Of a DNA stretch of 25,613 nucleotides, positions 1-21,493 are shown one piece after another. How positions within the stretch are numbered: position 1 is the stretch's first letter; each line of letters starts with the position of its first letter. The position numbers and the translations under genes are program-made. The notes below the pieces were generated by a model. The model was not told the origin of the DNA. It searched no databases and saw only the letters and a list, made by a program, of their open reading frames with translations. The stretch is from IMG/VR virus record IMGVR_UViG_3300031993_000018, positions 1 through 25,613 of that record; one strand, given 5' to 3'. This DNA comes from a virus (lineage: Duplodnaviria > Heunggongvirae > Uroviricota > Caudoviricetes).

Positions 1-2232
1 GAACCTGAACCGGAATCAAAGACTTATTATTATAATATATTGGTAATAGATAATGATAATGATAACCCAATATCAGGAGTTGGAGTCAAGTTGTATAAAA
101 ATATTGGTACAACTCCCTGGAAAAAGTATAAATGTAACTATTGTGGATATGTTTATGGGGATTATTATCTTTCTGTAATTGGTGCTACTTGTCCAAACTG
201 TGGTAACCAAATAATTGTGGAGCAGACTATAAACACTACTACAAATGCAAATGGATTCATATCCATCCCAATGGAAAATCAAATATCAGCACCTTCCAAT
301 ATATATGCAAGGATTGATGATTCCACTAAACCAGAGGGATATGAAGATGGAGAAGAGGGTAATTATGTAGTTCCAATGGATAATGAAAGTACACCTGGAT
401 GTACTATTGCACTTACACCAATTCAACCTGACTATTATACTTTCCATTTTAGGTTCATTGACAAAATTTCAAAATTTGCCATTGGCAATATGTCTGTCAG
501 AAGGGGAAATGTTGGAAATTCATTTTCTATTGGAACAGTGGATGGTTATGGAAACTATGTATATACCACCACTGATATAAGTTTTGAATTATATATCCCA
601 GAACAGTCAGGATACAAGAGTTTTCATGAACAATATACTTATACCTCCGGAAGTTACTATGAAATAGAACTTGAACCCAAGAATACAATAAGGGTTATGG
701 ATGGTGACATACCAAAGGGAAATATCAGGGTTAAGATAACATATAAGGAAAACAATGAGGATAGGGAATGGACATTTGTAACATTTAATGAAGATGACAA
801 TAAAGGTTATATACAAACTTTATCTTCAACTGTATATGATTCTGGTAATAAATATTGGGTAGAAGTAATAGGTTATTCCAGTATTGGAAAATATATATTA
901 CCTGGAGATAACATACTTGATGTATCTCAAATTCCAGATTCAGGAGATGAACCGGTGATACCAGATGATACTGATAGAATTGTAAAATCAGTATATGGAA
1001 ACTTTGAAGAAGTGTCTGTCAAAAATATCAAGGAACATATCAATATTGGAAATGAGGTTCTGGAAGAGATATATAAAAACAATTATAATAATGAACAGAT
1101 TGATGTAGAGGGCAATAAGGTATCATATAAAGGTGGAAATGATTATAGAATCAAGATTGTTGACCCTGATTCCATAAATGTGTATGATATATTTGAGGGT
1201 ACATATATTGATACCAATGACAGTCAAAATTCAATAGGTTCAATGGACATCAAGTTAAAAGATGATCCTAATGAATTGAGATTGAAGATAATTAACAGAT
1301 ATTCCGGTTATTATAATCCTATTTTCAAGGATATCCTGTTTTATAACAATATGGTCACAAAGGATGGTGTGAAATGTCCTTATTCAAACACATCATTTGA
1401 TTACAACTATAAGGATAACTATGGTAAGTTTGGAGTAATCAACAATATGTGGTTTCATAAGGCAAATGACAATAAGAAAATCAGGATTATCAATACAACT
1501 GAACCATATTATCCATTAACTGGACAATATGCCCTTGATAGTAGGGATTATAACATCTTTGAGACTAATTGGGATAACAGACATTATACCAAACAGGTTG
1601 ATGTTGAAACATCTCAACCTTGTGACAACATAAGCAGTATGAAGGATGGTCTGTGTATGTTTGGATCCAAGTATCTCAATGTACCTGAAACTATAGAAAT
1701 AAATTATCTCACACTTGGACTGGATTCCAGTTGGAATGGTGAATGGAATGATGATTATATCACACAACCCAAGATGTGTCCCGGTGAGATTATGTTCAAG
1801 GAAGTGAATGGTAACAGTGTTGATTTTTATATATTCCTGAAGAAGAGAATAATAAGATTCTTCCAGGAAATATTGTATGATGAATTCAAAAAGTATATTT
1901 CAAACCAACATTCATTTGGTAATAAAGAAGGTATTGAGGATGACATTGAGGAATATGTGGAAAAGAACATTTTGAAACTCTACAGACTTGAAAGGGTGAG
2001 AGTTTTTGTCAGAAGAATAAAGAGAGGTATACATGACAGCAAGATTGAGAACAACTATGGTGCTTATCTTGATAAGAATGTCACATATTTCAGACAGCAT
2101 GGTTTTGTGGAGACAAACAATGTTAGACTGACCAAAATCAACACAGATGCCTTTGACAGGAAACTGGTATATAACCTGAAAACCGGATACCAGGAAGATT
2201 TCGGATTTGCCTTTATTTTGAGAAAGATATAA
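1..2232 (+). CDS. Large putative virion structural protein, 5'-truncated (Ig/prealbumin-like modules, CxxC-CxxC insert)
   Basis: Frame is open from base 1 (EPEPESKTYYYNILVID...), so the TTG at 40 is probably not the true start. Beta-rich modules of the 'NPISGVGVKLY...TTTNANG' type; ends TAA. Confidence 0.55.
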   Translation, partial: EPEPESKTYYYNILVIDNDNDNPISGVGVKLYKNIGTTPWKKYKCNYCGYVYGDYYLSVIGATCPNCGNQIIVEQTINTTTNANGFISIPMENQISAPSNIYARIDDSTKPEGYEDGEEGNYVVPMDNESTPGCTIALTPIQPDYYTFHFRFIDKISKFAIGNMSVRRGNVGNSFSIGTVDGYGNYVYTTTDISFELYIPEQSGYKSFHEQYTYTSGSYYEIELEPKNTIRVMDGDIPKGNIRVKITYKENNEDREWTFVTFNEDDNKGYIQTLSSTVYDSGNKYWVEVIGYSSIGKYILPGDNILDVSQIPDSGDEPVIPDDTDRIVKSVYGNFEEVSVKNIKEHINIGNEVLEEIYKNNYNNEQIDVEGNKVSYKGGNDYRIKIVDPDSINVYDIFEGTYIDTNDSQNSIGSMDIKLKDDPNELRLKIINRYSGYYNPIFKDILFYNNMVTKDGVKCPYSNTSFDYNYKDNYGKFGVINNMWFHKANDNKKIRIINTTEPYYPLTGQYALDSRDYNIFETNWDNRHYTKQVDVETSQPCDNISSMKDGLCMFGSKYLNVPETIEINYLTLGLDSSWNGEWNDDYITQPKMCPGEIMFKEVNGNSVDFYIFLKKRIIRFFQEILYDEFKKYISNQHSFGNKEGIEDDIEEYVEKNILKLYRLERVRVFVRRIKRGIHDSKIENNYGAYLDKNVTYFRQHGFVETNNVRLTKINTDAFDRKLVYNLKTGYQEDFGFAFILRKI

Positions 2233-5247: not shown

Positions 5248-6618
5248 TTAATATAAATCATCAATTATATGATGTTTCCAAGCCCACAAATATGCACCAT
5301 AACTATTCTTTCTGAATTCAGACCTATTATTATATTTTTCTGCTTCTTTTCTTACAGATTCTTCATCCCAGTAACTCCTCACATTACTAAATAAATCATC
5401 AAGAAGTTTGTGTTTTCTGGCCCATTGGTATGCACTCCCATTTCCTCTTGCAAATTGAAGTTTTGTGTCATATTTGGATGCTTCTTTTCTTATTAAATCT
5501 TCTGTCCATAAAAAATTTTCTCCAAATAAGTCATCAATAATTTTATGTTTTACTGCCCAATTGTATGCAGATTTACATCCTACTTCAAATTGTTTTTTAC
5601 TATCATATTTAGATGCTTCATCTTTAACAGATTCTTCATCCCAATGTTTTGTATTTAATTTACCAAACAATTCATCAAGAAGATTATGTTTTCTGGCCCA
5701 TTCATATGCACCACCATATTTTTTATGAAATTTTTCTCTTGAGTCACATTTTAATGCTTTCTCTCTAACAGATTCTTCATCCCAATCATGTAGATTCAAA
5801 TCACCAAATATATCAGTCATTATCTTATGATTATTTGCCCAATTGTATGCGGGTTCACACCCATCTTTAAATTCTTTTCTTGTTTTATATTTAGATGCTT
5901 CTTTTCTTACAGATTCTTCATTCCAAATATTGCGATTTGTTTTACCAAACAATTCATCAAGAATTTTATGATTTAATGCATATTTGTAAGCAGACCCACA
6001 TCCCTTGAAAAATTGTGTACGGGTTTCATATTTAGATGCTTCAGCCCTGACAGTTTCATTTGTCCAATGTGTGTTATTTATTGTACCTAATGAACCACTT
6101 CCAATACCTGTTTTACCTTTATTTAACATAAAATATCCTTCACCTTGATATTTGTGCTTATAAAAATCTTCCATATCTTGAGCATCAATGGGTGATAAGT
6201 TTTCTTCTAAATATATTGGGTCTGGAACATCTTTACCAATACTTGTAAAATAGTTATATACAACAGTATGTCTTTCTCTACCTCTAAATATACCTGTTTT
6301 ATGTGAATTGTGTCTTTCTTCTTTATTAACAGTTAATCCTACATAAGCAACCTTATTGTCCTCATCAATATATGCATATATACATCTTGGTCTATCATCT
6401 TTTATTTTTAATAACCAATCAAAAGATTTAATTAAGTGATGTGATTTTGCATATTCAAATGCATCAGGACTGTTTTTCTTGAAATCAGATAGTGTATCAA
6501 ATTTTGCCGCCTCATTAGATACACTATCTTTATCCCAATCAAAAATATCATTTGATTGTTTAATTGATTCTTTAATTAACCATGAATTAAAATCAGGTAT
6601 AACATACAAATTTATCAT
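5248..6618 (-). CDS. GIY-YIG endonuclease with seven ~46-aa helical repeats
   Basis: CIYAY...AYVGLT...ERHNSH...AQDME...MLN matches the GIY-YIG pattern (Y, Y-x-G, R, H, E, N). One repeat before and six after the nuclease domain. Confidence 0.85.
   Translation of the reverse strand: MINLYVIPDFNSWLIKESIKQSNDIFDWDKDSVSNEAAKFDTLSDFKKNSPDAFEYAKSHHLIKSFDWLLKIKDDRPRCIYAYIDEDNKVAYVGLTVNKEERHNSHKTGIFRGRERHTVVYNYFTSIGKDVPDPIYLEENLSPIDAQDMEDFYKHKYQGEGYFMLNKGKTGIGSGSLGTINNTHWTNETVRAEASKYETRTQFFKGCGSAYKYALNHKILDELFGKTNRNIWNEESVRKEASKYKTRKEFKDGCEPAYNWANNHKIMTDIFGDLNLHDWDEESVREKALKCDSREKFHKKYGGAYEWARKHNLLDELFGKLNTKHWDEESVKDEASKYDSKKQFEVGCKSAYNWAVKHKIIDDLFGENFLWTEDLIRKEASKYDTKLQFARGNGSAYQWARKHKLLDDLFSNVRSYWDEESVRKEAEKYNNRSEFRKNSYGAYLWAWKHHIIDDLY
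5251..6069 (-). repeat. Six tandem coding repeats (45-47 aa, last one shorter)
   Basis: Consensus WxEESVRxEAxKYxxRxxFxxxxxxAYxWAxxHxxxDxLF. Confidence 0.9.
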
Positions 6619-8078: not shown

Positions 8079-8696
8079 ATGAAAGTATTTTTAGGTGGCA
8101 CCTGTGCCGAATCAAAATGGAGGGAAATTATAATGCCCCAGTTACAGTGTAAGTATTTCAATCCTGTTGTGGAAGACTGGACACCGGAGTGCCAGGAGAA
8201 TGAAGAAAGGGAGAAGATAATCTGTGATTATCATCTTTATGTGATCACCCCAAAGATGAAGGGTGTGTTCTCAATTGCAGAGGTCGTCAATGATTCACAT
8301 GAACTTCCAAATGGCCACTGTGTCTTCTGTGTCACAAAGGAAGAGGATGACAGGGATTGGACAAAGGGTGAGATGAAGAGTCTTGATGCAACAGCAAAGA
8401 TGGTTGAGAAAAATGGAGCAAAGGTTTGCAAAAATCTTGATGAGGTGGTTAATTACCTGAATACAATGAACTCAATGGATGAGGTCAAATCACAGAAACA
8501 TTCATTGGATTATTATGTAAAGAGGACTGATCATCTGGTATCACTCTACAATAGACTTGTACATGAGATTCTTCCTGAGGGTTGGTATTGTACAGCAATG
8601 GATTGCTGGACTTGTGAGGAGGAGGAACTTGCAGAATGTATCTCCAGACTTCACAGACCATTTGTACAGAGGATTATCAAGAGAAAGAACCTATGA
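8079..8696 (+). CDS. Nucleoside 2-deoxyribosyltransferase-like protein with C-terminal extension
   Basis: KVFLGGTC...WRE...YFNPVVEDW...FSIAE pattern of the NDT-like family. Confidence 0.75.
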   Translation: MKVFLGGTCAESKWREIIMPQLQCKYFNPVVEDWTPECQENEEREKIICDYHLYVITPKMKGVFSIAEVVNDSHELPNGHCVFCVTKEEDDRDWTKGEMKSLDATAKMVEKNGAKVCKNLDEVVNYLNTMNSMDEVKSQKHSLDYYVKRTDHLVSLYNRLVHEILPEGWYCTAMDCWTCEEEELAECISRLHRPFVQRIIKRKNL

Positions 8697-9064
8697 AAGA
8701 GATAAGAACTAAACTGTTTTCCTGTGGGTTGAACAAAAACGGAAGGGTTTATCCCAAGGAAGTGATGGAGAATGCTTTGGAAAACCTCAAGGAAAATGGA
8801 GGTTGGGGACTTCTGTGTCACCCTGGTACAGAATATGGTAAATTGGAGGATTCCATTGGAAAGGTTGATGAGATCAAGATGGATGAGAAGGGAGATGTGT
8901 TCGGAAAGGTATTGTTATTTGACAATCCTTCTGGAAAGGTATGTCAGACAATATTGGATAATGTGGATACATCATCTATAGAAGTTACTCCTGTTGGGTA
9001 TGGTGAGGTTGAAGATGGTGTTGTCAAGAGTTTTGATATAACTCATTTTAATATAAAGTTATGA
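8693..9064 (+). CDS. T4 gp21-like prohead protease homolog, apparently degenerate
   Basis: NKNGRVYPKEVM and GLLCHP (cf. GELxHP), but EVTPVGYG in place of GVSSRGxG. ATGA overlap at 8693 favoured as start. Confidence 0.7.
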   Translation: MKEIRTKLFSCGLNKNGRVYPKEVMENALENLKENGGWGLLCHPGTEYGKLEDSIGKVDEIKMDEKGDVFGKVLLFDNPSGKVCQTILDNVDTSSIEVTPVGYGEVEDGVVKSFDITHFNIKL

Positions 9065-10919: not shown

Positions 10920-12887
10920 ATGGGTAAAATTTACAATGACATTGAAAAGAATGAAGAAGGTACTGTAGAGAATATGATAGATGATATTCTGTCAGTGGGT
11001 TCATTGGTATTGGAAAGGGAGATAAAGTTCCGTGAAAATGAAGTGAACCGTGTCTATAACATTATGGACAAAGTTGACTACAGGACTGTACTTCTTGTTG
11101 GTGATTTTGGTTCGGGTAAGAGAAGTGTCATAGAAGGATATGTCAATAAACTCAATAAGAATGTCAGGAGAGACAAGGTTATTGAGATTGATTTTGATGA
11201 TATATGTTCAAAGACACAGAATGGTGGTGATTTTACAAAAATCATCAATGATGTTTTTTATGCCGCTACCAACAATGAGACATTTGAAATCACTCTTGTT
11301 GTGAACAGACTTGCCCATCTTCTTAATCTCAACTGTTATGGTAATGCGGGTTTCTCATTTGTAAATACACTTGTCAATTATGTGAAGGATAATAACCTGA
11401 AGATGATTGCCACTGTATCAAATGATGAATACAAGACCATTGAGGATTCATTCAAGATACTGTTGGATTATTTCACAGTTATTAAGTTGAAGGAACTCAC
11501 CAAGGATGAGACCGTTGAGATCATTGAGGATGATCTTCCATTCTTTTCAGAAAGTTATGACATAAAGTTCCCAAAGAACACAAGTGAACTTATCTGTAAG
11601 CATGCAGACAAATACATCAAAGACAGGGTTTTCCCGGGAAAGGCGGAAAGACTCCTGGATGAGGTGTGTGCAAGTATATCAAACAAGTACAGACCTGCTG
11701 ATGAAAGACTTATTGAACTCAATAAGTCCACCAAGGAACTCAAAGAGAAACTTGAACAGGCTATGTTAAACAATGACTACAACACCTGTGAGGAAGTCAA
11801 TGAGAAACTCAATGAGAACTTTGAAAAGTATAAGAAACTTGGTAATGAACTGTTTCCTGCTATAAATGCCACAGAAGAGGACATCCTGGAGGCAATAGGT
11901 GAGATTGTTGATGTACAGATGTCAAGACTCACCGATGATCAGACAAAATTCCTCCATGATATGGGTGATGAGATAAAGAAGTATGTCATAGGTCAGGATG
12001 ATGCAGTGGATACTGTTGTGAAGAATATCCGCAGAAACCAGCTTGGTCTCAGGAAGACCAGTCACTCTGCCGGTAACTTTATGTTCATAGGTTCAACAGG
12101 TGTAGGTAAGACTTATCTTGCAAAACAATTGGCCAAGTATCTTTATGGTAGTGAGGAGGCTCTCCTGAGACTTGATATGAGTGAGTTCCAGTCAGAGATT
12201 GATGTGTCCAAACTTCTCGGTTCAGCACCAGGTTATGTAGGTTATAAGGAGTCAGGTCTTTTGGTCAAGGGTCTTGCCAAGAGAGGTGAAACTGTTGTCC
12301 TTTTTGATGAGATTGAGAAGGCACACCCGAAGATTTATGATGTACTTCTCCAACTCCTGGATGAGGGTTTTGTAACTGGTTCTGACGGCAAGAAGGTGGA
12401 TGCCACCAAGGCACTTATCATATTCACATCAAACATAGGTGTGAAGGAGGCAAAGAAGATGTCAAGTCCTATAGGATTCACTGATAATGTGGAGGAGAAA
12501 AAGAATGAGAGAAAGGAGGAGATTATCCGTAAGGCTCTGAAAAACAGGTTCTCACCTGAATTCCTCAACCGTCTTGACAATGTATGTTATTTCAAGCCAC
12601 TTGACAGGGAGACATTGAAGTCTGTTCTCAAGAAGGAACTTGGTGAGTCAAATGAGAATATCAAGGCAATTTCAGGAAAGACAATCAAGTTGTCTCCTGA
12701 AGTTGAAGAGTGGATATTGAATAAGGTTGAGGAAGAGGATAATGGTGCAAGACCAATCATCCGTCTTATTCAGCAGCACATTGAGGAGAGTATTTCAGAT
12801 ATGATCATTGACAGTGATCCTATCCTTGATTCAAAGAAAAAGACTCTGACCGCAAAGTTGGATGGAGAGAAAATCATATTAAAATAA
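10920..12887 (+). CDS. ClpC-like AAA+ ATPase (no N-domain, degenerate NBD1, intact NBD2)
   Basis: RVFPGKA, UVR-like coiled coil, GSTGVGKT, RLDMSEF, GSAPGYVGY, LFDEIEKAHP, IGF loop, PEFLNRLD, GARP. Confidence 0.9.
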   Translation: MGKIYNDIEKNEEGTVENMIDDILSVGSLVLEREIKFRENEVNRVYNIMDKVDYRTVLLVGDFGSGKRSVIEGYVNKLNKNVRRDKVIEIDFDDICSKTQNGGDFTKIINDVFYAATNNETFEITLVVNRLAHLLNLNCYGNAGFSFVNTLVNYVKDNNLKMIATVSNDEYKTIEDSFKILLDYFTVIKLKELTKDETVEIIEDDLPFFSESYDIKFPKNTSELICKHADKYIKDRVFPGKAERLLDEVCASISNKYRPADERLIELNKSTKELKEKLEQAMLNNDYNTCEEVNEKLNENFEKYKKLGNELFPAINATEEDILEAIGEIVDVQMSRLTDDQTKFLHDMGDEIKKYVIGQDDAVDTVVKNIRRNQLGLRKTSHSAGNFMFIGSTGVGKTYLAKQLAKYLYGSEEALLRLDMSEFQSEIDVSKLLGSAPGYVGYKESGLLVKGLAKRGETVVLFDEIEKAHPKIYDVLLQLLDEGFVTGSDGKKVDATKALIIFTSNIGVKEAKKMSSPIGFTDNVEEKKNERKEEIIRKALKNRFSPEFLNRLDNVCYFKPLDRETLKSVLKKELGESNENIKAISGKTIKLSPEVEEWILNKVEEEDNGARPIIRLIQQHIEESISDMIIDSDPILDSKKKTLTAKLDGEKIILK

Positions 12888-16294: not shown

Positions 16295-16314
16295 TATTTA
16301 TATAGGTATTTATG
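16295..16314 (-). promoter_or_regulatory. Tandem late promoter boxes CATAAATA / TATAAATA
   Basis: Minus strand reads CATAAATAcctaTATAAATA upstream of the gp13-like gene. Confidence 0.65.
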
Positions 16315-16828
16315 AGTTTTTTTTTAATATTGGGTTTTCAACCATAGAGAGTAGTCTGTCAATGACATCAACACAAGTCTTGTTGGTTATTTCCTCCCCT
16401 ATGGGGTAAATGTCATATCTGTTATTGGTTCTCTTAACCCAATTGTATTTATCTTTGAATGTCTTTACCATCTCATTTGGATATAGTCTGAAAAAATATT
16501 GATTGAGTCTGATTTCAAATTCATCCCTTTGTATATCTTCTACAATATCAATCATTCTGTTACCAAGATTTGGGGTATCTTTTGAATTGTTTTTTTCAAT
16601 GGGTATTGATATTGTTCCGATTTTATTATTACCTGGTGTATACCATGAACCTATTTGAAAAAACTGTGGATCAACAGTTGATGTATATGTATCTTTCAAA
16701 TATTCAACAAACTCATCAAATGAAAGATTGTTGATGTCATCCTCTTTCCTGATAGTCTCTCCAGAACCTCTATCCAGGATACCACCCCAAACTGATTCTT
16801 TAATATATGTTTTGAAATCTGGTATCAT
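16310..16828 (-). CDS. Paralog family member 1 (putative internal head protein)
   Basis: Leader MIPDFKTYIKESVWGGILDRGSGETIRKEDDI. Confidence 0.7.
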   Translation of the reverse strand: MIPDFKTYIKESVWGGILDRGSGETIRKEDDINNLSFDEFVEYLKDTYTSTVDPQFFQIGSWYTPGNNKIGTISIPIEKNNSKDTPNLGNRMIDIVEDIQRDEFEIRLNQYFFRLYPNEMVKTFKDKYNWVKRTNNRYDIYPIGEEITNKTCVDVIDRLLSMVENPILKKNS

Positions 16829-17352
16829 TTTCTTTCAAGTATTTTTAATATATTCTTATTATCAGGTGTGTTATCTAATATGAAATCAATGAACTCTTCA
16901 CAGAATTCATATGACATATGGTCTTTTGGATATATTATGAAAACAATCCAATGATCAATACCATCATGTTCTGATTTTTCTGGTGAATACTCTGATTCAA
17001 TCTTGTCATATAAATTTAAAAGGTCATTTTTAACATAAGAAACAAATAACTTCATTTCTTGAGTTTTGTATTTATTCGGACTTATTGTAGAGAACATTAT
17101 ATGGTCTGACTTTATTCCTATTGACAGATAAGTACCCATCTTTATAATTTTAAACATTGGGATATGTATATATTCGGGATCATATTTGATTTCATCCACC
17201 ATATTCACATAACCTATCTGATACTTTGAAATAATCTTATCATATATGTGTTTCAGTATATCTTCTCGTCTGACCTTTTCACCTGCACCTCTGTCAAGCA
17301 TATCTCCCCAGGTTGATGATTCTCTTATATATGTCTTGAAATCCGGTATCAT
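16825..17352 (-). CDS. Paralog family member 2 (putative internal head protein)
   Basis: Leader MIPDFKTYIRESSTWGDMLDRGAGEKVRREDI; ATGA coupled. Confidence 0.7.
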   Translation of the reverse strand: MIPDFKTYIRESSTWGDMLDRGAGEKVRREDILKHIYDKIISKYQIGYVNMVDEIKYDPEYIHIPMFKIIKMGTYLSIGIKSDHIMFSTISPNKYKTQEMKLFVSYVKNDLLNLYDKIESEYSPEKSEHDGIDHWIVFIIYPKDHMSYEFCEEFIDFILDNTPDNKNILKILERK

Positions 17353-17861
17353 TTCTTTTCTATTTCTCTTGTTAATGGTTTTCTCACTCTTTCAATGATG
17401 AAATCAAGTATTTCTATGAAGAATTTGTTTGTGATATTTATATATCTGCATCCTTTAGGCTCCACTTTTAGTTCCACAATCTCATGTCCATCAAGATCTT
17501 GTCCAGATATTGTGTGTGTTGTATATCTGTATTTCAAATCATCATATATTTCAGGGGCACTACTTTCAATACCTCCAGATATACATAACTCACTGTCTCC
17601 TTCAATATTCCTATATATCAGATACACATTGTATCCAACATTATCCTCATATAAATTTATATATATGCTTCCATCATCAGCTGTTGTCTGGAAAATTGAT
17701 GAATTATCTCTATATGTGTAATTGTCTTTCAGATACTGGACTAAACCAATCCTGTCAAGAAAGTCAATGTCATCCTCTTTCTTTACAGTATCACCAGTAC
17801 CTCTGTCAAGCATCCCACCCCAGGTTGATTCTCTTAAATATGTCTTGAAATCCGGTATCAT
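17349..17861 (-). CDS. Paralog family member 3 (putative internal head protein)
   Basis: Leader MIPDFKTYLRESTWGGMLDRGTGDTVKKEDDI. Confidence 0.7.
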   Translation of the reverse strand: MIPDFKTYLRESTWGGMLDRGTGDTVKKEDDIDFLDRIGLVQYLKDNYTYRDNSSIFQTTADDGSIYINLYEDNVGYNVYLIYRNIEGDSELCISGGIESSAPEIYDDLKYRYTTHTISGQDLDGHEIVELKVEPKGCRYINITNKFFIEILDFIIERVRKPLTREIEKK

Positions 17862-17862
17862 A

Positions 17863-18561
17863 TTATCCTATCTTTACTTTCTTTGAGAAGTCATCAACAG
17901 TAATCTGTTGGATTGGTTTTGATGACTGACCATCTGATGTGAAATGTTTATGATTGTTAAATACTTCCATCAGTCTGCTTCCAAGAATGACCTTATCCTC
18001 TGCATCCTTTGTGAGTTTGACCTCATTACAGTCAAGGTTCACATTTGCCTTTGTATGTATTGTGATGTCATTGGTTGCTGTGTCTATTGAAAGTCCGGCC
18101 CCTGACTTTGTCTGTATTTCCAATGAGTCATATTTAGGCATTGAAATCAGGTTACCGTTACATTCTATTGTGAGACCTTTTTCAGGGAGATAGTATATCT
18201 TCATATACTGTTTTGTTCCATCCTCATTGTAATCCTCTGAAAAGGCGATTACTTTCACCTCTTCACTTGATTCGGCATTGTCATGGAGTATGTCCTTTAC
18301 TTTTCCCCTGAGTTCTACATTACCATAATATACAATATTGTATGCATCCTGTACATCAACATACACCCTGTCACCTACTTTAGGTACAGAATAAGAACCA
18401 CCATTGGCAGATGGATTGGGCGCAGGCAATGCCCAGGGAAGGTCATCATCAAGGATAACATATCTTCCACCAACTGTCTGTGTGTGGATTCCGAAAACCC
18501 TTATCTGACACCTGTTTTTGAATGTTGGATCATAATTATTTACAACAATTCCTGTTTTCAT
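17863..18561 (-). CDS. Baseplate central spike (gp5 OB-fold / gpV-like)
   Basis: GIVVNNYDP...RCQIRVFGIH...LPWA...VPKVGDRVYV; C-terminal FNNHKH metal-binding tip motif; no lysozyme domain. Confidence 0.85.
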   Translation of the reverse strand: MKTGIVVNNYDPTFKNRCQIRVFGIHTQTVGGRYVILDDDLPWALPAPNPSANGGSYSVPKVGDRVYVDVQDAYNIVYYGNVELRGKVKDILHDNAESSEEVKVIAFSEDYNEDGTKQYMKIYYLPEKGLTIECNGNLISMPKYDSLEIQTKSGAGLSIDTATNDITIHTKANVNLDCNEVKLTKDAEDKVILGSRLMEVFNNHKHFTSDGQSSKPIQQITVDDFSKKVKIG

Positions 18562-18562
18562 A

Positions 18563-18605
18563 CATAAATATTTATAAGGAGTCTATTTATACACAAGTAT
18601 TTATG
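18563..18605. promoter_or_regulatory. Cluster of four late promoter boxes in the divergent spike/TerL gap
   Basis: CATAAATA (+) at 18563; (T/C)ATAAATA (-) at 18569, 18584 and 18598. Confidence 0.65.
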
Positions 18606-18633
18606 GGATTTCCTATATATAAAAACACAATTT

Positions 18634-20523
18634 ATGGCACAACAAAATGCACAGGTAAGTCCTAGAAAAAACATCACCTGGAGTACAAAAACAGTTGACA
18701 GTTGGATGATGGATCATGCAGAGGGAACATTCCATAAGGAGAATCCCTGGTTGGATGGTCAGGTGGGTGTTAAAAGGGCAGGACTCTTGTTTGATTACAC
18801 ACAAGAAGAGATAGAAGAACTAACAAAATCAGCGAATGATGTAATATACTTCGCCAACAATTATGGATATTGTCTTCATGGTTCACAGGGTTACAAACCC
18901 ATTACATTGAGAGACTATCAGGAAGAGATGCTCAACAGTTACAGTAATTACAGATTCACATGCTGTATGTCTTCAAGACAGGTGGGTAAGACTGTGGTAG
19001 CAGCTCTTTTTCTTCTCCATGAGGCAATTTTCAATGTGGATAGAAACATAGGTATTGCTGCGAACAAACTCGCAACAGCGGTTGAAATTATGGATAAGAT
19101 AAAGGAGATTATGGATTATCTCCCATTCTTTATGAAACCTGGTATCAAGGTTTACAACCAGACAATGATTGTATTTGAGAATGGTTGTAGAATCATAGCT
19201 CAGGCAACAACAAAGAGGTCATTCATTGGTTTTACAATTCATACACTTTACTGTGATGAGTTCGCACATGTTGAACCACACATCCTTGATGAGTTCTATG
19301 AGAACATTATGCCTACAGTATCATCAATGGAGGACTCAAAGATTATCATCACATCTACACCTAATGGTTACAACAAGTTCTTTGACATTTACCAGGGTGG
19401 TGTTGACGGTACCAACTCTTATCATTCATTGAGGGTTGACTGGTGGCAGGTACCTGGAAGAGATGAGGCATGGAAAGAAAAGACTATTGCTGACTGTGGT
19501 GGTGAGGATGAGTTTATGAGACAGTTCGGTAACTCATTCCTTTCAACTGGTAATACACTTCTTTCACCTGACAGCCTGGCCAAACTCCAGAAGGGAAGAA
19601 AGAAATATGTCAGAAAGGATATTCCTGAAATAGAAAAGAACTGGGAGGAGGAATACAAGGATCTCCTTTTCCATCCAGACTTTGATGTTGATGAATTGAG
19701 AGACCCAGATAGAAAATGGGTGATGAGTATTGACCTTTCAGAAGGAGGTGGTGGAGACAACTCCATCCTTAACCTGTTTGGTCTGAAGATGAAAGCAAAG
19801 GAACTGTTGAAGGATTTCCTGACCAACCCGGATAAAGAGGTGAAGAAATCAGACTATTTCAAGCTTTCACAGTGTGGCAGGTTCAAGAGTAATATCACCA
19901 CATTGGAGAAACTTGCAAAACTTGCATATATCCTCATTATGGATGTAATAGGTCCTGACAATATCAGGGTTGTTGTCGAATACAATGCCTTCGGTGGAGA
20001 GTTCTTGAGACTGTTGCAGACAGTGTTTGGTGACAAGAATGAGTTTGATATGTCCTGTATCCTGAAGTTCTATCACACAACAGATACAAAGGCCAGGAAG
20101 TATGGTCTCAAGGTAAGACCTGACAATAAACCTGTTCTTTGTATTGCACTGAAGGGTATGATTGCAAGTGACAACATTGAGGTCACAGATGATGATACTG
20201 TTGCAGAATTTGAGGTATTCAGTAAGATAGGTAATACCTGGAAGGCAAGTAGGGATCATGATGACCTTGCTATGTCAACTGTTGACCTTACTGCTGTATT
20301 TGACCATCCTTACTTTGATGTGATGATGGAAGAGATTATGGGACTTGAAGAGAATGAGGAGGCATGCAAGATGTATGAGTCCAAGATGGATGAAAAATAT
20401 GGAAACCTGTATGACAACTATCAGAACCTGAGACCAGAACCAACATATAATGAAGACTCCGACTATAAATATAGAGATAACGGTTTCGGAGGATATTTCG
20501 GAAACAAGGGAATTTACAATTAA
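18634..20523 (+). CDS. terL: Terminase large subunit (T4 gp17-like)
   Basis: LRDYQ, SSRQVGKT, LYCDEFAHV, ITSTPNG, SIDLSEG, HDDLAMS. Confidence 0.96.
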   Translation: MAQQNAQVSPRKNITWSTKTVDSWMMDHAEGTFHKENPWLDGQVGVKRAGLLFDYTQEEIEELTKSANDVIYFANNYGYCLHGSQGYKPITLRDYQEEMLNSYSNYRFTCCMSSRQVGKTVVAALFLLHEAIFNVDRNIGIAANKLATAVEIMDKIKEIMDYLPFFMKPGIKVYNQTMIVFENGCRIIAQATTKRSFIGFTIHTLYCDEFAHVEPHILDEFYENIMPTVSSMEDSKIIITSTPNGYNKFFDIYQGGVDGTNSYHSLRVDWWQVPGRDEAWKEKTIADCGGEDEFMRQFGNSFLSTGNTLLSPDSLAKLQKGRKKYVRKDIPEIEKNWEEEYKDLLFHPDFDVDELRDPDRKWVMSIDLSEGGGGDNSILNLFGLKMKAKELLKDFLTNPDKEVKKSDYFKLSQCGRFKSNITTLEKLAKLAYILIMDVIGPDNIRVVVEYNAFGGEFLRLLQTVFGDKNEFDMSCILKFYHTTDTKARKYGLKVRPDNKPVLCIALKGMIASDNIEVTDDDTVAEFEVFSKIGNTWKASRDHDDLAMSTVDLTAVFDHPYFDVMMEEIMGLEENEEACKMYESKMDEKYGNLYDNYQNLRPEPTYNEDSDYKYRDNGFGGYFGNKGIYN

Positions 20524-20525
20524 AT

Positions 20526-21014
20526 ATGAAAAAATTCAGTGAAATAAGTGAATCTACCTGGGGTGGTATATTGAACAGAGGTAGAGGTGATTCAGAAAGA
20601 AAGGAGGATGATGTCAATCTTCTTGACAGGAATGGATTATATGAGTATATTTTCAGTAAATATGAAACACTTGAATTAAAAGTAGCATCACCACCTTATA
20701 AATCTGATACTGATCCAAATGGACATGAATATTTTACAATACCAATATTCATGAAAAATTTCAGATCATACAGATTGAATACAAGTTTTGATAATGGTGA
20801 AATTACAAAAATACAATTACTATCAACAACCAAGGATGCCGAAGACTTTATGGATGCATTGAGGGATAATTTTTACATATGGGTTACATCAGATGGTAGA
20901 ATTGATATAAAAAACAAAGAGAATCATGGTGTATCAAATCAACTTTGTATGGATGTTATAAAGACAATAGTTGAAAATGCACCGGAACCATTATTAAAAA
21001 AGAAGGAAGAATGA
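20526..21014 (+). CDS. Paralog family member 4 (putative internal head protein)
   Basis: Leader MKKFSEISESTWGGILNRGRGDSERKEDDV. Confidence 0.7.
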   Translation: MKKFSEISESTWGGILNRGRGDSERKEDDVNLLDRNGLYEYIFSKYETLELKVASPPYKSDTDPNGHEYFTIPIFMKNFRSYRLNTSFDNGEITKIQLLSTTKDAEDFMDALRDNFYIWVTSDGRIDIKNKENHGVSNQLCMDVIKTIVENAPEPLLKKKEE

Positions 21015-21493
21015 AAAAGTTCAGTGAAATAGACGAGTCAGTATGGGGAGGTATCCTCGACAGAGGTGCCGGAGACACCAAAAGAAAGGAGGATGAAATC
21101 AACCATCTTGATATATCTGAAATGTATGAATATATTTTAAGTAAATATGAAACGACTGATAATAAGTACAGGATATATTTTGAAACAGATGGTGTAGCTC
21201 CTGAAATTGGAATGTCAATATTCAGAAAAGATGGAAAGATGTATTCACTCAAGTTATTTTCTCAACATGTTTCTGAAAAAATAAGGGTGATAAGATTAAA
21301 TTCAAGTACTTTAGAAACAGATGATGAGGTCTTAAGGGAATTATTTAAGAAATCCAGAGTTGAAATTACGGCAGATAACAAATTGGATATAACCAAATAT
21401 AACTATTCTGTCACAAACCAACTCTGTATAGATGTGATTGACACTATAATAGAAAATGCAAAAGAACCGTTAATAAAAAAGAAGGATGAGTAA
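21011..21493 (+). CDS. Paralog family member 5 (putative internal head protein)
   Basis: Leader MKKFSEIDESVWGGILDRGAGDTKRKEDEI; ATGA coupled. Confidence 0.7.
   Translation: MKKFSEIDESVWGGILDRGAGDTKRKEDEINHLDISEMYEYILSKYETTDNKYRIYFETDGVAPEIGMSIFRKDGKMYSLKLFSQHVSEKIRVIRLNSSTLETDDEVLRELFKKSRVEITADNKLDITKYNYSVTNQLCIDVIDTIIENAKEPLIKKKDE

Follow-up and report, generated by a model that had tools for sequence, protein, structure and literature searches.

The closest described counterparts of the genes considered here are the internal proteins (IPs) of bacteriophage T4. IPI, IPII, IPIII and Alt carry a capsid targeting sequence (CTS) that is cut off by the protease gp21 (PMC8442874, PMC3012670), and the published description of the IPs calls them highly basic (PMC8442874). 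The heads of SPN3US and phiKZ contain paralog families, among them two paralogs whose N-termini are identical while their bodies have diverged, as well as a truncated protease paralog; one SPN3US head paralog family has 20 members (PMC5694885). The genes compared with these systems are five small open reading frames (ORFs) lying in two arrays within the window, a stretch of 25,613 nucleotides (nt) that forms the first 25.6 kb of the 153.6-kb IMG/VR virus record IMGVR_UViG_3300031993_000018 (G000, estimated to be 64% complete). On balance, they probably encode head-internal cargo of a giant uncultured phage in the T4 superfamily, targeted and trimmed like the T4 IPs and bearing in addition a second, retained tag, with the polyproteins of the family being cut to single domains in the prohead.

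Several features are shared with T4 (PMC8442874, PMC3012670). The family proteins start with a leader (part A) of ~10 to 19 amino acids (aa) that ends in [IL]-x-E, and in some members it has the form K-[ST]-F-x-E-F-I-x-E, near the KTYQEFIAE of T4. As with the T4 IPs, a constant leader stands before highly diverse cargo bodies, the genes are apparently late and lie outside the head gene cluster, and there is a gp21-type protease in the clade. Unlike the T4 IPs, the family has a second conserved tag (tag B) on the retained side of the predicted cut and tandem-unit polyproteins with a site at each junction, its bodies are acidic, and the leaders of the five window genes are of the IPDF and MKKFS types rather than the T4 form. 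No homology of the mature part to IPI, IPII, IPIII or Alt was found with Pfam, PHROG, tblastn against GenBank phages (T4 included) or a PDB sequence search, so the family is better said to work like the T4 IPs than to belong to them.

Large paralog families and processing past Glu are also features of the head paralogs of phiKZ and SPN3US processed by gp175/gp245, and of their ejection proteins (PMC5694885); in the present family cleavage is predicted. These phages differ in their cleavage motif (A, S or G, then x-E) and in their often long propeptides, and neither a polyprotein format nor a retained conserved tag has been described for them. New relative to both the T4 IPs and phiKZ/SPN3US are a tag that is retained, a junction that is invariant, the polyprotein format and the scale.

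Five paralogs within a larger family

Five paralogs in two translationally coupled arrays, behind the spike gene and behind terL, had been proposed in an earlier note on this DNA, and the ORFs, the ATGA junctions and mutual identities of 29 to 36% (alignment of the five) show that they are real. The gene for a gp5-like baseplate hub (spike) protein heads a minus-strand late operon in which paralogs 3, 2 and 1 come after it, and terL heads a plus-strand operon with paralogs 4 and 5 (Table 1). Every junction within both arrays is an ATGA overlap, that joining paralog 5 to paralog 4 included, and the first gene of each array begins 1 to 2 nt past the stop codon of the hub gene or terL.

Residues M1, F5, E11, S12, W14, G15, L18, R20, G21, G23, E29, D30, Y48 and D139 are invariant in all five proteins. 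In an alignment of 76 sequences the column entropy is 1.0 to 1.2 bits over residues 1 to 30, against 2.1 to 2.9 bits for most core columns. The alignment of the five also has a C-terminal helix (TN..C.DVI) that is conserved more weakly. The entropy contrast and the invariant residues agree with the anatomy described before, namely a conserved N-terminus of ~30 aa, a weaker C-terminal helix and a divergent core. The same holds for the claim that the leader is conserved through synonymous changes: 10 of the 20 aligned amino-acid columns of the tag are identical in all five genes, and two or more codons are used at six of these ten. As identical residues are encoded by differing codons, selection acts on the tag peptide, and the synonymous differences among the five copies argue against recent gene conversion.

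Structures were predicted with AlphaFold2. With the 76-sequence alignment, the core of paralog 1 (residues ~30 to 172) was modelled as an alpha/beta sandwich ending in the conserved helix, with a predicted local distance difference test score (pLDDT) > 90 and a predicted template modelling score (pTM) of 0.77; residues 1 to 28 had a pLDDT of ~46 to 53. A two-unit protein was modelled as two independent domains, its N-terminal 26 residues and the linker (160 to 175) having a pLDDT < 50 and the whole a pTM of 0.45. Across the models the cores scored 85 to 95. According to these predictions, the best-conserved part of the family is a flexible linear segment outside the fold. The earlier note had allowed for the leader being simply a part of a known fold, but this was rejected on the disorder scores (leader pLDDT < ~50, cores > 85 to 90). 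Docking of tag B onto a neighbouring domain in tandem proteins was rejected as well (linker pLDDT < 50, pTM 0.45), and autoproteolysis of the pyruvoyl-enzyme type at the E/S site (here and below a slash marks the predicted cut) was set aside, the site lying in a segment predicted to be disordered.

It is highly improbable that the conserved N-terminus has no role in sorting or cleavage and is either an ordinary part of a domain (such as an arm folding when the protein oligomerises) or a product of recombination at the DNA level. Low pLDDT can mask segments that fold only in oligomers, and tandem paralogs can swap sequence by gene conversion. Against this, the segment is found at the head of several folds that are unrelated and of very short ORFs (described below), it is the family's best-conserved part, its leader classes are interchangeable and six of the ten invariant tag residues differ in codon across the five copies.

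Neither sequence nor structure searches gave the family a name. Pfam-A matched no family in any of the five proteins at E ≤ 0.01, PF12699 (inner-head paralog family A of phiKZ and SPN3US) being among those not matched, and a PHROG scan of the five genes gave no family (one weak match, E 0.002, was disregarded). Megablast and tblastn against 50,697 GenBank phage records, T4 included, gave no family homolog, a PDB sequence-profile search nothing at E ≤ 1, and the ESM Atlas no usable match. No names were found for family proteins or clusters among metagenome matches and cluster look-ups, and no papers for the motif strings in the literature. With Foldseek, nothing better than E 0.1 was obtained against PDB and nothing better than E 0.018 against BFVD (cut-off E ≤ 0.001); the weak BFVD rows for the core were Bacillus phage G paralogs and MotA. 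In a wide VIA-align search the best Z was 6.6 and no row stood out, a value within the range that the tool calls common for unmatched models. The C-terminal 'double-wing' fold of MotA gave Z 5.5 to 5.8 with a root mean square deviation of 3.3 to 3.4 over ~100 residues to 5jlt and 6k4y (Foldseek E 0.2 to 0.3), and SycT, Spa15, DR_1245, TriTu and PsiB, which represent type III secretion chaperones and small immunity- or inhibitor-like alpha-beta sandwiches, gave Z 4.4 to 5.9, none of them above background.

Although the paralogy stands, the count of five was an understatement. G000 carries a further copy outside the window, a gene of 314 aa with two tandem units (27221-28165), and in addition three short ORFs at 124264-125529 that begin directly with MS[IV]WGDMLDRG and a 144-aa protein at 148071 with the same MS[IV]W-type start and a WYL_2 domain. 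A word-indexed search of metagenomes found 236 relatives, many of ~300 aa, and a profile search of 1.84 billion representatives gave 786 clusters (50% identity) at E ≤ 0.001 and 255 at E ≤ 1e-30. Family proteins have one to seven tandem units (counted as matched stretches) and reach 1159 aa. Since relatives carry the same units fused, the window arrays are the split form of tandem-unit proteins. Two relatives, of 411 kb and 345 kb, are near-complete (94% each) and have 40 and 26 family matches, respectively, compared with three IPs in T4.

Leader and junctions as candidate prohead cleavage sites

In 220 proteins with tag B no more than 40 aa from the N-terminus, the leader was of the IPDF type (MIPDFKTYIxE) in 133 and of the MKKLS type in 66; seven had a T4-CTS-type leader (such as MNKVKSFKEFINE) and 14 had other forms, including the very short MSTTNE. 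Every class ends in [ILVMT]-x-E followed by Ser, and the classes are interchangeable. The seven T4-CTS-type members carry M..IK[ST]FxEFI.E, for example M..VKSFKEFINE/S. In the window proteins the leaders end in IKE/S, IRE/S, LRE/S, ISE/S and IDE/S, and all five match the gp21 site [LI]-x-E. For comparison, the N-terminal sites in the T4 record are MKTYQEFIAE/A (IPII and IPIII), ..ITE/A (IPI), MAKINELLRE/S (gp24) and ..GSFLTE/A (gp23). MIPDFKTYI.E shares KTY and I.E with the T4 CTS and MKKFSEI.E is closer to T4 gp24, these motifs being too short for firm homology. T4 gp21 itself (gene 21, record 103448-104086) begins MNEPQLLIE/TWGQPGE, with [IL]xE and then T-W-G, a faint likeness to E/S-x-W-G that may be due to chance.

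The junctions inside fused proteins have a site of the same kind. A pattern requiring only the downstream W...G...RKE part located 215 internal junctions, in which P1 is Glu without exception (215/215). Ser occupies P1' in 208 of them, one of V, I, T, L and M occupies P3 in 211, and Asn occupies P2 in 142. A Lys-rich stretch lies ahead of the site.

Candidates for the protease and for other substrates are present in four IMG/VR relatives of the window genome that served as comparison genomes (G001, G002, G004 and G005). All four have a Peptidase_S77 (gp21-type) match above the Pfam cut-off, and in G001 and G002 a gp23-type capsid protein is encoded near the protease. The capsid protein of one relative starts ..LKTWSGFITE/S and has SLNE/S at residues 50 to 54, both preceding the block aligned to T4 gp23 residue 107. 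In G002, [VILMT]NES occurs 24 times (7.5 expected) and about ten large proteins have [IL]xE/S at residues 9 to 22, most of them encoded within the structural cluster or downstream of a box like a late promoter. One of these ten, a 1927-aa late protein (34030-39813, minus strand), starts with the T4-like leader MLNLKSFEDFLNE/S, and three others start with IPDF-like leaders. Several proteins of 600 to 1158 aa from the G002 structural cluster have [IL]NE/S in the same interval. Matches to the T4 CTS 9-mer are enriched in N-terminal over interior windows (odds ratio 3.7, p = 0.0013). That the leader behaves like a T4-type propeptide or CTS, as first proposed, is backed in silico by its [IL]xE/S end, by near-T4 copies in some members, by the sites in the capsid protein and other late proteins of one relative and by the gp21-type protease of all four.

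Outside the window, a short way downstream of the two-unit gene of G000, two small ORFs (G000:C1:28498-29333; L020:2899-3734) start with MQKDVLKFEDFVNE and MTMFVKSFKEFINE, near the T4 CTS, and are further candidates for head cargo. The GIY-YIG nuclease of the window has leader part A and no tag B, with a CATAAATA box 4 nt upstream of its start, and may be another prohead-targeted protein.

The box CATAAATA is one base off TATAAATA, the late promoter of T4. G000 has 33 copies of it, 22 of these ≤ 60 nt upstream of an ORF start. It is found upstream of the hub gene (36 nt), terL (63 nt), a neck-like gene and two large genes beside the arrays, as well as upstream of the two-unit family gene (4 nt) and the gene encoding the tag plus WYL_2. 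All three non-family ORFs with leader-A-like N-termini, including the GIY-YIG nuclease, are preceded by it. The CATAAATA boxes are probably late promoters of the window phage, and the coupling of the arrays to hub and terL, with boxes upstream, suggests that they are expressed late, along with virion genes. Overall, most genes on the minus strand and some of those on the plus strand have a box a short distance upstream.

A portable tag with a genome-specific dialect

Tag B is a flexible stretch of ~20 residues downstream of the predicted cut site with the consensus S-x-W-[GS]-x-[IM]-x-x-R-[GS]-x-G-x3-[RK]-K-E-D. It can also open a protein directly (MS[IV]W...), with no leader. Behind it stand unrelated cores: DUF1566/Lcl_C-like (GWRLPT), WYL_2, repeat-like, and short ORFs of no known type, some with hydrophobic segments. 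When single units were cut from family proteins, 412 of 484 matched the family core and 72 did not.

Five of the proteins have Lcl_C-like cores, with Pfam matches below the cut-off. These and the repeat-like cores lend some colour to display outside the virion, with tag B anchoring lectin-like, repeat and alpha/beta binding modules to capsid, collar or baseplate for decoration or adhesion; three paralogs lie directly behind the baseplate hub gene, and expression is apparently late. Such a role is nevertheless improbable. Removable leaders bearing a gp21-type site are to be expected in the interior of the prohead, where the protease acts (PMC5694885), a site at every polyprotein junction is ill-suited to a fibre, the AlphaFold2 models have neither trimerisation nor fibre features, and the Lcl_C matches are themselves sub-threshold.

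The tag is far more alike within a genome than between genomes. Tag identity averages 0.86 over 197 within-genome pairs and 0.51 over 469 between-genome pairs, whereas core identity is 0.27 in both cases. Counted as ten residues from the Trp, the tag reads WGG[IM]LDRG.G in G000 and G001, WGDMMRRGSG in G002, WADIH[KR]RSNG in G004 and WNDIR[KR]RGNG in G005, and leaderless small ORFs share the dialect of their own genome. In G004, clusters of at least 10 very short ORFs (55 to 173 aa) at 54000-68000 and 27000-32000 start with MS[IV]W.D[IM]H[KR]RSNG; no relation is seen among their bodies, one of which includes a hydrophobic, membrane-like segment.

The genome-specific dialect, together with the synonymous differences, points to co-evolution of the tags of one genome with a single phage-encoded partner. 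Portability to unrelated cores and dialect both strengthen the earlier proposal that the WGGxLDRG segment is a separate, second signal. Tentatively, tag B may be a previously undescribed sorting signal of giant T4-superfamily phages, kept on the cargo, exposed by prohead-protease cleavage or Met removal, and read by one phage-encoded receptor in the prohead or exit channel, so that any domain behind it is loaded or ejected; a single receptor of this kind would explain the dialect. Cargo-loading peptides of encapsulins are likewise short, disordered, conserved and found on unrelated cargo, and dock inside an HK97-fold shell. The analogy is functional only, since these peptides are usually C-terminal and involve no proteolysis, and binding of tag B to the capsid is hypothetical.

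A different partner is conceivable, as a gene for a ClpC-like AAA+ unfoldase lies 3 to 5 kb from the arrays in the window, in G004 (337606-339570) and in G005 (179406-181367). Tag B would then be a docking peptide for this unfoldase, with E-S as part of the binding motif, and the cores would be unpackaged cytoplasmic adaptors handing host proteins over for unfolding or degradation. The dialect implies one phage-encoded partner here too, and the cores resemble binding modules. Yet the unfoldase copies are 72 to 73% identical, and because synteny is common to close relatives the proximity is not independent evidence. A docking role also leaves unexplained the aliphatic P3 and invariant Glu, the interchangeable T4-type leaders, the sites in capsid and late proteins and the apparent late co-transcription with hub and terL, and it has little likelihood.

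If, as favoured here, the five genes encode head-internal cargo, their products would be synthesised late from the hub and terminase operons and would enter the assembling prohead. There the gp21-type prohead protease would cut past the invariant Glu, removing the leader, and the same protease would split the fused polyproteins of relatives (two to seven units) into single domains. All products would then start with S-x-W, the N-terminus that leaderless MS[IV]W genes would reach by Met removal. The retained tag B would bind a phage-encoded partner, most likely the scaffold core, the inner shell surface or the exit channel, which would load, hold or eject the cargo. In the most speculative step, the variable cores would be binders or inhibitors delivered with the DNA into the next host.

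Viral polyproteins and the 'polyvalent proteins' of phages and plasmids, which are delivered with DNA, place several independent domains in one chain. The family does the same, and processing is proposed to release the domains. It differs from both in that its units are small and mostly of one fold, the junction is invariant and highly conserved, and the units also occur as separate, translationally coupled genes.

Packaging and processing may instead serve a structural end, the proteins forming an inner-body or core-like mass that in a very large head would organise the DNA or prime ejection, while their cores drift neutrally. In phiKZ and SPN3US the paralogous proteins inside the head amount to tens of MDa (PMC5694885), the near-complete relatives have 26 and 40 matches, and the acidic isoelectric point (pI) of the family is nearer to that of the acidic T4 core proteins gp67 and gp68 than to the basic IPs. 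On the other hand, a core identity of 0.27 both within and between genomes and unrelated folds behind the same tag look like a diversifying repertoire of binders, and AlphaFold2 predicts independent globular domains on flexible linkers with no assembly interface. A structural mass is rather unlikely.

A number of points weigh against head-internal cargo as proposed. The leaderless MS[IV]W genes are without a T4-type leader, so tag B would have to bring their products into the prohead by itself. Tag B also heads some lectin-like (DUF1566) and repeat-like cores, and modules of these kinds usually act outside cells or on virion surfaces. The G000 record has no capsid protein, and its sole gp21-like ORF is sub-threshold and truncated, so that a prohead protease for G000 has to be deduced from relatives. 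A Gp23 search of the record found no match and its remainder is dominated by replication and metabolism genes, which indicates that this record, at 64% completeness, lacks the head module. The arrays of G001 and G002 are surrounded by replication genes, not head genes. The E-S pair may be invariant because structure or binding requires it, and not as a scissile bond. Up to 40 units per genome are much to package. The clade is uncultured, with no homolog in the GenBank phage records. Finally, the hypervariable cores of ~130 aa belong to acidic proteins (pI 4.6 to 5.5), whereas the T4 IPs have been described as highly basic (PMC8442874).

Should the proposal hold, the capsid-targeting principle of T4 would extend to a large uncultured clade of phages of 150 to 400 kb, elaborated there into a two-part signal and a polyprotein format. 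The 786 clusters would supply hundreds of candidate head-packaged proteins for screening against host defence systems. With tag B read as suggested, polyprotein arrays would be a way to package many effectors in fixed proportions, and a loading or ejection signal would offer a new portable handle for packaging foreign proteins in phage heads. The genome-specific dialect would then provide a direct route to the receptor of tag B.

Neighbouring genes and further loci

The features of the window are collected in Table 1.

Table 1. Features of the window (positions in nt unless marked aa)
Feature	Position	Strand	Basis or remark
GIY-YIG nuclease (456 aa), N-terminus MINLYVIPDFNSWLIKE/S (..IPDFNSWLIKE/S)	5248-6618	-	PF01541, E 1e-7
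Short gp21-like ORF (142 aa)	8636-9064	+	PF03420, 21.5 bits (Pfam cut-off 27)
ClpC-like AAA+ unfoldase	10920-12887	+	phrog_4871, E 1e-133
Examples of CATAAATA boxes	16307-16314, 18563-18570, 18598-18605, 23746, 23753		
Paralog 1 (172 aa)	16310-16828	-	ORF list, alignment, AlphaFold2 model
Paralog 1, leader A MIPDFKTYIKE	aa 1-11, nt 16828-16796	-	
Paralog 1, tag B	aa 12-31, nt 16795-16736	-	
Paralog 1, alpha/beta core	aa ~30-172	-	AlphaFold2
Paralog 2 (175 aa), leader MIPDFKTYIRE/SS then tag WGDMLDRGAG	16825-17352	-	ATGA overlap with paralog 1
Paralog 3 (170 aa), leader MIPDFKTYLRE/S then tag	17349-17861	-	Start 1 nt past hub stop codon
gp5-like baseplate hub (spike) N-terminal domain protein	17863-18561	-	phrog_430, E 6e-13
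Divergent intergenic region, CATAAATA/TATAAATA boxes on both strands	18563-18605	.	Candidate T4-type late promoters of hub and terL operons
Large terminase terL, T4 type	18634-20523	+	PF03237, E 1.4e-20
Paralog 4 (162 aa)	20526-21014	+	Leader MKKFSEISE/S nt 20526-20552; tag B nt 20553-20612
Paralog 5 (160 aa)	21011-21493	+	Leader MKKFSEIDE/S nt 21011-21037; tag B nt 21038-21097
Large gene, 603 aa	21905-23716	-	Behind a CATAAATA box
Large gene, 470 aa	23782-25194	+	Behind a CATAAATA box

The short gp21-like ORF of the window sits upstream of the clamp loader and is probably a truncated protease paralog rather than a working prohead protease. G002 has a second Peptidase_S77 match, a 309-aa ORF (L027:835-1764, minus strand) beside an ORF that is clamp-loader-like, as judged from its N-terminus alone. 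Both ORFs are like the 'cryptic', truncated and presumably inactive protease paralog of SPN3US (PMC5694885).

The two large genes at the end of the window, which are divergent, gave no PHROG match and none above the Pfam cut-off (one weak sub-threshold DUF5755, E 0.011); they are apparently late and probably encode virion proteins. With terL as the tblastn query, the best matches were uncultured phages of 460 to 640 kb.

Outside the window, G000:C1:36884-38831 (L020:11285-13232) holds four tandem ORFs of 160 to 162 aa, all starting with MEVI.PIGI.GSGK[ST]RLY, which contains a P-loop motif. They form a second tandem paralog array, unrelated to the five-gene family.

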